Shown: positions 1,519 to 52,432 of the stretch, in pieces | Layout of the letters: the number at the start of each line of letters is the position of its first letter | Position numbering within the stretch: the first letter of the stretch is position 1 | Source: Harriotta raleighana | Taxonomy: Eukaryota | Direction: 5' to 3' | Assembly (NCBI GenBank): GCA_050575255.1 | Contig: JBNZDD010013718.1 | Location: forward strand, 3,653,098 to 3,717,097 | Length of the DNA: 64,000 nt | The notes under the pieces: generated by a model | Seen by the model: only the letters and a program-made list of their open reading frames with translations | Databases searched by the model: none | What the model was told of the DNA's origin: nothing | Program-made: the position numbers and the translations under genes

Positions 1519-1591
1519 TGAAAACCCGCCAGCAGCAAATTAAGTGTTTGCCTTACCCATATAGATAACTTTTATATAAAAAAATGTATAA

Positions 1592-1760
1592 TAATGCAGC
1601 TGCTGGAAATCTGAAACAAAAACAGAAATCGCTGGTAACAACCAGTAGGTCAGGCAGCATCTATGGAGAAAGGAAAAGTGAGTTCTGATGAAGGGTTGTG
1701 GACCTGAAATGTTGACTCACTTTTCCTTTCTCCATAAATGCTGCCTGACCTGTTGGTAGA
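1592..1760 (+). mobile_element. Penelope-like-element-derived palindromic repeat (chondrichthyan type)
   Basis: gctggaaatctgaaacaaaaacagaaa leader followed by 44-bp inverted arms, 1641-1684 and 1714-1757 (40/44 Watson-Crick complementary). Confidence 0.7.
1641..1757 (+). ncRNA. Minimal type-I hammerhead ribozyme motif
   Basis: Stem I 5' arm ends at 1684; CUGAUGA 1685-1691; stem II AGG/CCU (1692-1694/1703-1705); GAAA 1706-1709; UGU plus U17 at 1710-1713; stem I 3' arm 1714-1757. Confidence 0.7.
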
Positions 1761-6370: not shown

Positions 6371-8029
6371 TTACGTAATTAATTTTAACGTTGAATGAGC
6401 AACAATATAAGTTTCGCTTAAATCCAAGGAAATTGTGATATAATGTATAAAACAGAAGTTCAATTTTGGTGTATAAAAATATGTACACGCCCTATTGCTG
6501 TATAAATAATCTGCAATTGGAATGTGAAAAAAGCAGCGAAATAAGGTGGAGCTAATCAAAGAAACTGATGTGCGATGCTTAGGACATCTGCAAACCATTC
6601 TATTTGCTGCCTCATTTGTGATACATGTTTAAAATTCAAAGAACAATTAGCATTTGCTTATCTTGGCCTGAAAACTTTTACTATTCCAGTGCCCCTGTTT
6701 GCGTATCATTCTGTGTATTGCCTATTCCTCCTTGTATGTGTGTAATAGCGATTGCAATCAGACTTTCTCACCCATGTGAATGAGATTCAGCAGATTGCAA
6801 GGTGCTAAAGAGTTGCTACTATATAACAGCAGAGAGGAAGGATGCTGCATTCTACTTGTGATTCTTCTCACAATGAGTTTTCAATCTTGGTTGTGTAATT
6901 CAGGAGAGAGTCAGTATTTTTCTACTTGTGCTATATAGTACGTAATGCTCCAAAGAAGAGCCAGCATATGACATATAAGAGGCATATTGTATTTAATATC
7001 TTATCTATCTAAAGGACAGTGCCTGCTACAGTTCATTGCAAAAGTGAACTCAAATCCTGACCAAAGACTCAAGCCTACAGTCCAATAACCCAAAGGAGCC
7101 AGAGACAAGACTATAATACTATCTTCTGCTTTCATTGCTTCGTTTTCCTCAACATGGCGTTGGTGATATCGAAACTCACCATTAAGATAACCACAAGGGT
7201 TGAATAGGAATGCAATAAGCAGGATATTAATGCACCGTTTCCAATTGGAATAAATTATCTTGCATCACCTATTGCAAACCAACTCTCTACACACACTCTC
7301 CTTTTATGTGCTGCAGGAGATGATTGAAACACTGAGGATCTAGGGCTGCCCTGTAGGGCATATTTTTATCACCTAAGTGAAATTCTTTGATCTGACAGAC
7401 GCACAAGTCATCATTGTCGTGGTATCCTAATTATATTAGACTTGAGAGAGCTCTTAAAAGGTGATAGACAGCCCTTCTATCCCATGAGGATTTGAGACCC
7501 AATTGGCAATATCTTGGGCATTAGGCAATCTTGAATCTAAAAAAAAGTAAAATACCTAGTACTCTTCTTCCAAGATTAAATCAATATATCTCTATTCTAT
7601 CAACAGTCATCAGCAACAGCAAATCAAGCATGAGTTTAGTGCAATTGCTAACTTCTTTAATGTCCTGGGAACAATTGACTGCACTCATGTAGCATCATAT
7701 GAATTTGTTTCCCATAATAGGAAGCAGATACATTCTATGAATATACAGGCAATCTGCAATGACAGATGCAGACATACCAATGTGATTGACAAATTCCCAG
7801 GCTTGTGTCATGATCTCTATGGGCAAATTCAGATCTATTTGTGAGCCTTGTAAAATGAAGTAATTAAGTTATTTGGTAGGTAAGCATTACTCCAATTCTT
7901 TTCATATGTAATCAATGGAAATAGTAGACGGGATATTCTGAAACCTTTCCCCTGTATTTTTCAGGATATGGCCTGAAGACTTGGCTGATTACTCTCTTTT
8001 TTGATTCCCATTCAGCAACTAAGGACAGA

Positions 8030-10586: not shown

Positions 10587-10905
10587 GATGTGTAGCTCAG
10601 TGGTAAGAGCGCTCACCTTACAAGCGAGAGTCCTGGATTCAAATCCAGCCTGGGGTCAATTCCAGGCAGGGCGAAACTTTGGGCAACTTTCCTTGCTCCA
10701 CACAGCTAATAATAATCCCTAAAAACAACAATAATATTTTGGTCATTTCAATCCACGACTGTTTGTGAGACACTGCTGTGCACATTTGGCTGTAGCGTTT
10801 CACCCACATATATACAGTCAATTCACTTTACAGTATATTCCATGAAGTGCTTTGAGACATATAGAACACATGAAAGCACTATGTCAAATGTAAGGAATAC
10901 TATTA
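10587..10905 (+). mobile_element. Full-length tRNA-derived SINE with L2-type 3' tail
   Basis: Pol III A box TAGCTCAGTGG 10593-10603, B box GGATTCAAATCC 10635-10646, body shared with at least 8 copies in the window, tail gaagtgctttgagaca...tcaaatgtaagga. Confidence 0.92.
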
Positions 10906-17091: not shown

Positions 17092-17480
17092 ATCATAATA
17101 ATAATAATCATCCTTGCATTTTATATAGCTTTTTATCACATCTTTGAGACATCCCAAAGTGTTTCACAGAATATACTGCAAAGTGAATTAACTATACATT
17201 TCATGGGCGAACTACTGCAGCCAATTGCACACAGCAGTGTTCCACAAACAGTTATAGATCTTATGACTAATTTACAATCTTTAATATTATTTTATTATAT
17301 ATTTATTACCCCTCGCAAAAGCGGTCTGTCAATCGACGAACAACGGGGTTCCTCCTTACTGCTAGGTAAACAGTGACGGGTGGATTAAGGAAACTTTGCC
17401 CAATATTTTGCTTTGCTTAGTAATCTAACTCAGGCCCTCTCACTTGAGAGGCGAGTGCTTTAACCCTAAGCTACAAGACT
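17092..17480 (-). mobile_element. Diverged full-length tRNA-SINE with an internal insertion
   Basis: (AAT)n tail at about 17095, body, ggattaaggaaactttgccca, and head ...cacttgagaggcgagtgctttaaccctaagctaca. Confidence 0.8.
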
Positions 17481-52019: not shown

Positions 52020-52432
52020 TTCAAAGCCCAATCTAACCATATGTCCCCTTTAACCTCTCTTATCGTGTTTAATTTTATATGTAAATCTCTCAAAAACAGG
52101 TTATGCGTAACATTTGCTCTTCCCATGTCCTGGAGGGGGTATTGGCTTTACTTTTCCAATTACAGGGGAATATCTTTCCGAGCCACTAAGAGTCCCATGA
52201 GGATGAGCGAAGCCTTTTGGACTGGACCACGGGGGAAAACCAGATCACTTGGAATGCTCAGTTCAGGCTTCATAAGAATTCTTATGTCAAAAACTGTACT
52301 CAAAATGTCCTCACCTTTGACCAGACGATATATATATACACATATCTATAGATACATCTATATATCTGTCAAGATGAAGAAAAATTCCACATTCTTCGAA
52401 GTCCAACTCGTTCCCAATCCTATTTGCAACGG
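52020..52432 (-). mobile_element. Fish-type L1 ORF2 C-terminal fossil
   Basis: Minus-strand peptides across frameshifts: RCK (Zn-knuckle remnant), ILMGLLVARKDIPL, NWKSKANTPSRTWEEQML, KLNTIREVKGDIW (cf. ARKxILxxWKSxxPPxxxxW). Confidence 0.6.

Follow-up and report, generated by a model that had tools for sequence, protein, structure and literature searches.

An old 181-bp head-to-head insertion enclosing a minimal hammerhead core in Harriotta raleighana, probably derived from a Penelope-like retroelement

A hairpin with a hammerhead ribozyme core in its loop lies near the start of a 64,000-nucleotide stretch (the window) of Harriotta raleighana contig JBNZDD010013718.1 (assembly GCA_050575255.1). 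We found that it belongs to a 181-bp insert at 1576-1756, which is one old insertion of a very high-copy repeat. Its two head-to-head pieces are likely parts of a hammerhead-bearing end repeat (pLTR) from a Penelope-like retroelement (PLE). Taken as a whole, the reading of the insert as an old, pLTR-like, head-to-head insertion of Penelope type bounded by a target-site duplication, with a long stem likely made during insertion and a hammerhead predicted to cut weakly or not at all, has in our estimate a probability of about 85%.

The boundaries of the insert are marked by a 14-bp direct repeat (1562-1575 on the left and 1757-1770 on the right) that is identical at 13 of 14 positions and is 86% AT. 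None of 2,000 random zone pairs reached a 13/14 match, and six of 2,000 did so when the left zone was kept the same. Between these two copies of the target-site duplication, 109 bp of inverted sequence, the 29-bp core and 43 bp of forward sequence make up the insert. Contigs of the repeat family identify the first piece (1576-1684, minus strand) as an inverted copy of the element's downstream part, whose start mirrors the predicted cut site, and the last piece (1714-1756, plus strand) as the downstream part in forward orientation, including the 3′ strand of the native stem I (1714-1717). Behind 1676/1683, contigs matching the left arm read on into the hammerhead in reverse complement. The inverted arm alone carries a 66-bp tail (1576-1641, minus strand), over which family depth is high at 1594-1641 and lower, with less similar sequences, at 1578-1593; on the right the tail is absent and the target duplication begins directly after the forward part. 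The inverted and forward pieces are joined within three shared letters of stem I, and the end of the inverted arm mirrors G1714, with which the predicted 3′ product begins.

Five letters of the left arm depart from the family majority. Three of these (1636, 1641 and 1642) can pair with the right flank and so extend the hairpin into the target duplication (1636-1642 against 1756-1762; post-hoc p ~1e-4). A template switch onto the target, a later quasi-palindrome correction or microhomology-guided priming may each have produced these letters.

The original prediction described inverted arms enclosing a hammerhead core with a cut after position 1713, and both the pairing and the register of the core agree with it. 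Arms 1641-1684 and 1714-1757 form 44 paired positions, comprising 40 Watson-Crick pairs, three G-U pairs (1684/1714, 1646/1752 and 1645/1753) and one mismatch (1661/1737). The fold has a predicted energy of -78.9 kcal/mol (z -14.4), and none of 200 shuffles was equally stable. The 29-base loop (1685-1713) is a complete minimal type-I hammerhead core in register: C3-A9 (1685-1691) and an extra unpaired base, A1692, between 9 and 10.1 occupy 1685-1692; stem II follows at 1693-1705; and 1706-1713 holds G12-A15.1 (1706-1709), 15.2/16.2 (a palindromic dinucleotide that is CG in the family and TG in this copy), U16.1 (1712) and U17 (1713), all on the plus strand. The roughly 13 core letters are all intact in this copy, and the NUH cut site is likewise in register, with cleavage predicted to follow U1713. 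Folding places stem II at G1693-U1697 paired with G1701-U1705, five pairs with a three-base loop and a pair probability of about 0.85, and gives the alternative AGG/CCU register about 0.14. Stem II is thus present as predicted, but the 3-bp AGG/CCU helix proposed for it was one base off. Changes of C to T at 1697 and 1705 have turned stem II G-C pairs, G10.1-C11.1 included, into G-U pairs.

The bare hammerhead sequence pattern is not above chance in the 64-kb window, occurring once against 0.85 expected and in 57 of 100 shuffles. With a stem II of at least four pairs and a stem I of at least three pairs required in addition, the real window contained one match and 200 simulated windows contained none. 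A search with the Rfam hammerhead covariance models, which had been suggested as a check, yielded no match at E values up to 10 in 1400-2000 or in 1672-1726, and no Rfam hammerhead family reached its gathering score anywhere in the 64-kb window. The missing helix III is likely the reason for this result. Matches to long-hairpin microRNA families in Rfam fell below the gathering score and reflected structure only, and were rejected.

Other copies of the family were studied through public contigs aligned to the window in four runs, with the junction set coming from four studies. Between 6,702 and 24,002 contigs per run aligned on 1450-1900 in all four runs (a count that includes the neighbouring CR1-like tail at 1450-1516), and between 220 and 2,257 per run aligned on the 65-bp junction alone, in four of four runs from four studies; contig depth of this kind is not copy number, and the seeds favour copies that resemble this one. 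The 64-kb window itself contains no second hammerhead core and no second copy of the repeat. A family consensus without the CUGANGA and GAAA boxes had been named at the outset as evidence against a hammerhead; the family plurality sequence retains the core. At four CpG sites of the ribozyme, family letters depart from this copy; C there accounts for 34-45% (1689), 36-59% (1697), 68-75% (1705) and 53-61% (1710) of contig depth. Loose contig ends escape alignment bias; their plurality sequence, listed by three runs, carries C at every one of the four CpG sites in two runs and at three sites in the remaining run, and reads CG at 15.2/16.2 in three of three. The proposal that T1710 is a decayed CpG is borne out by these figures.

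Judged from its letters, the family is the minimal hammerhead (min-HHR) described in PMC4209133, with G10.1 paired to C11.1 in a full G-C stem II, one additional base following A9, and CG as its palindrome. It shares with metazoan PLE min-HHRs the core boxes, the extra base between 9 and 10.1, G10.1-C11.1, a palindromic 15.2/16.2, a short helix I, the lack of helix III and a massive spread of dispersed single copies (PMC4209133). Helix I of min-HHRs is about 3-5 bp long, and that of the family has four pairs. This copy departs from that description in its G-U pair in place of G10.1-C11.1, UG at 15.2/16.2 and a stem I lengthened by the inversion. The core boxes, extra base, CG palindrome and 4-bp stem I uphold the Penelope-type hammerhead first proposed for this locus. 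No cartilaginous fish is included in the species table and alignment consulted from PMC4209133.

The length of native stem I follows from the point at which the family parts from this copy. Before 1681, contigs matching the core carry flanks that are unrelated or else the native upstream sequence, which is C-rich, so that native stem I comprises only 4 bp (1681-1684, plus strand, with 1714-1717); the first three letters of its 5′ strand are the junction microhomology. Since family copies have other upstream sequence and a 4-bp stem I, the long stem reflects an inversion and is not, as had been assumed, a feature of the ribozyme; the left arm repeats the element's downstream part in inverted orientation. 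We consider the 44-bp stem likely to be a by-product of insertion, of a kind already described, that formed when this copy inserted.

The original prediction had favoured a palindromic, non-autonomous Penelope derivative or a retrozyme-like family. If the insert were such a short element (retrozyme- or MITE-like), spreading as one unit, the long stem I would form part of its RNA. A clean target-site duplication around a compact palindrome and junction-spanning contigs in all four runs would fit such an element, which should, however, have a fixed centre. Among the 32 pieces listed (the longest of 4,433), 21 span the junction, and their length offsets range from -10 to +12 with 13 distinct values; offset 0, the junction as found here, occurs in one of the 21. 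Some of these offsets probably reflect a single locus sampled in two species, and long pieces are favoured by the selection. Other contigs have both cores head to head or shorter inverted arms, and most contigs are not palindromic at the junction. The window also contains no tandem unit with a hammerhead, the defining trait of animal retrozymes (10.64898/2026.07.22.740005). Animal non-LTR retrozymes resemble the insert in being non-coding and pLTR-derived with a type-I hammerhead, and they occur in one cartilaginous fish genome of that survey, but they are direct tandem units each bearing a hammerhead, whereas here there is a single core in an inverted insert. A palindrome propagating as a unit is therefore very unlikely in our view; because the junction offsets vary between copies, the mirror half was likely built anew at each insertion.

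The anatomy of the insert is in keeping with what is described for PLEs. Insertions of endonuclease-bearing PLEs have an inverted, 5′-truncated pLTR, a one-sided tail and a target-site duplication, and are mostly head to head (PMC8557442, PMC3846280, PMC2377424). An inverted 5′-truncated copy overlapping a direct copy is reported for Adineta Pen2a/Pen3a (PMC3846280), in the scheme of PMC8557442 and for Penelope of D. virilis (PMC2377424), and the one-sided tail, target-site duplication and AT-rich target are likewise shared with these elements. Unlike them, the insert is a miniature (181 bp, no ORF and one direct copy) with its junction inside hammerhead stem I. Its tail of 66 bp and duplication of 14 bp also exceed the 30-40 bp and 8-10 bp published for PLEs, which counts against our reading. 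The Anolis element Poseidon PAc (PMC11167929) supplies a mechanism, with both strands cut and extended, two reverse transcription start sites and a protein-assisted hammerhead, but it belongs to another lineage, and inverted joints are not known to have been described for it. A reverse transcriptase or GIY-YIG frame was not found by Pfam among 274 of the 276 window frames of at least 55 aa (the two containing N being left out), nor was one linked to the family; the name Penelope thus rests on the ribozyme and the insertion anatomy. We found no longer protein holding a translation of the arm, which weighs little, and pattern scans of metagenome, viral and prokaryote genome contigs gave no match. 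Searched by title and abstract, the open literature on Penelope in sharks and cartilaginous fish yielded no description of the family, which may well be catalogued.

The mechanism that we infer would begin with a staggered cut in AT-rich DNA by an element-encoded nuclease. Both nicks would then prime reverse transcription, which would begin at two different points on the RNA, the farther of them giving the tail. In vitro, the anole element cuts and extends both target strands, and its two start sites bound the tail (PMC11167929). The two short cDNAs would be joined through the 3-base complementarity of stem I, and joining there would let the mirror arm extend stem I in perfect register in this copy. 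The ribozyme would act on behalf of the source element, either dimerized or assisted by protein; inserted copies decay neutrally.

Alternatively, self-priming could have inverted a Penelope-derived insert: synthesis would fold back, for instance on an antisense template as Arkhipova et al. (2013) proposed, and the hairpin would be provided by stem I. Junction palindromes are read as products of self-priming in PMC3846280, the junction here sits in the self-complementary stem I, and the three private outer letters of the left arm complement the right flank as if synthesis had run back into the target. However, with the sense of the loop on the plus strand, a pure fold-back must start from the right-hand cDNA, where there is no tail, so a second, tail-bearing template would be needed to supply the 66 bp on the left. 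The junction offsets are also widely spread and not fixed at the hairpin. We regard fold-back as possible but on balance unlikely, and keep the joining of two cDNAs as the preferred route.

A further alternative is that ribozyme-cleaved RNA was the template of the left arm and that the arm therefore stops at the cut site, which would make the junction a fossil of cleavage in vivo. This would account for where the arm ends, mirroring G1714, but the 3-base microhomology yields the same junction with no cut at all. This offset is seen in one of the 21 listed spanning pieces, and in at most four if one- or two-base differences in A runs are allowed. Many family copies, moreover, begin at 1679-1683, in the 5′ strand of stem I and not at the cut site, next to unrelated AT-rich flanks; loose ends starting there numbered 242, 283, 77 and 49 in the four runs, and the native upstream sequence is kept in only a roughly estimated 14-29%. 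Starts upstream of the core indicate that uncut RNA is a common template, and uncut RNA is the main substrate reported in PMC11167929. A cleaved template is thus unlikely for this insert. We give an equally low weight to a composite course in which the insert records the whole Penelope joining step: one cDNA would have run off a ribozyme-cut RNA end, and the other would have folded or annealed at stem I and then been copied back along its own arm to a point just inside the target, which would explain the target-complementary letters at 1636, 1641 and 1642. If this were true, stem I and cleavage in vivo would steer the placement of Penelope inversions and 5′ ends.

The native upstream sequence is pyrimidine-rich and ends in AG at 1681-1682, resembling a splice acceptor, and in Penelope of D. 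virilis an intron ends at helix I (PMC4209133). Splicing as the origin of the family 5′ ends was unsupported, as the loose ends show no common upstream exon.

With regard to activity, this lone copy is predicted to cleave weakly or not at all. The calculated energy of the dimer helix is +0.8 kcal/mol for this copy, -3.5 kcal/mol with the family C and -1.7 kcal/mol with a family-type partner. No cleavage was observed for monomeric min-HHRs in the experiments described in PMC4209133, and the anole PLE ribozyme is inactive without protein (PMC11167929); for dimer cleavage, the review PMC6765202 cites Lunse et al. The long arm is predicted to keep stem I shut (inner pair probabilities 0.87-1.0), which, together with the intact core, may leave room for some cleavage with a partner RNA, contrary to our reading. 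Across family copies, G-to-A loss amounts to 6.7-9.1% of depth at G8 and 11.7-14.1% at G12, and to 9.1-13.5% (1698) and 11.9-13.9% (1631) at non-catalytic CpG Gs. Per C-bearing share, a rough measure from depth-weighted contig counts, the loss is 0.17-0.23 at G8 and G12 versus 0.14-0.25 at neighbouring CpG Gs. The catalytic Gs are lost as fast as their neighbours, as expected for neutral decay.

The idea that the hammerhead cleaves host intron RNA finds little to build on here. Domestication as a functional ribozyme cutting host pre-mRNA might be argued from the intact catalytic core and from the four CpG changes, all of which are C to T and spare G8 and G12. The locus was, however, picked for its intact core, and sparing two Gs has odds of about 1 in 4 or better. 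No convincing host exon was found by a splice-bounded frame search or by Pfam on the 274 window frames (three sub-threshold hits), no partner core lies within the 64 kb, and stem II and the dimer helix, the latter predicted to be unstable, are both weakened according to folding. We consider a domesticated function extremely improbable.

As a ribozyme, the locus carries little weight, such motifs being known in thousands of copies per genome; the small value of the insert lies in the trace it preserves of how Penelope inversions form. Tiny inserts that hold both ends, tail and junction within 181 bases are convenient data points for counting breakpoints relative to the cut site and stem I. Such counts bear on how the inverted halves of Penelope are built and on hammerhead cutting in cells.

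The surroundings of the insert contain traces of other repeats. The nearest is the end of a very high-copy repeat at 1450-1516 with an 8-base tandem tail (1499-1516), which we take to be CR1-like. The hairpin had been placed just downstream of a CR1 tail; the tandem tail is indeed there, but the link between the two does not hold, as the tail ends at 1516 and 45 bases and the target-site duplication intervene. The CR1-like tail is an insertion separate from the hairpin. A composite element of tail plus hairpin was rejected, since contig depth drops almost to nil across 1530-1561 and the two are connected by just three single contigs. Just before the CR1-like fragment lies the second copy (1221-1278) of a 58-bp direct repeat whose first copy, 90% identical and 912 bp away, is at 309-366. 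Farther along the window, tRNA-like heads above the Rfam gathering score at 10592-10649 (plus strand) and 17421-17480 (minus strand) are probably tRNA-derived SINEs, and a sub-threshold DDE_Tnp_4 match (E 0.00066) at 7560-7841 (plus strand) is probably a decayed piece of a Harbinger-type transposase. Broken frames at about 52100-52330 (minus strand), with one frame near 52160-52330, resemble the C-terminal end of an L1-type ORF2 and may be its decayed remnant. Close to the insert, one contig matches 1726-1900 letter for letter but lacks the 18 bases at 1816-1833, likely an allelic deletion.
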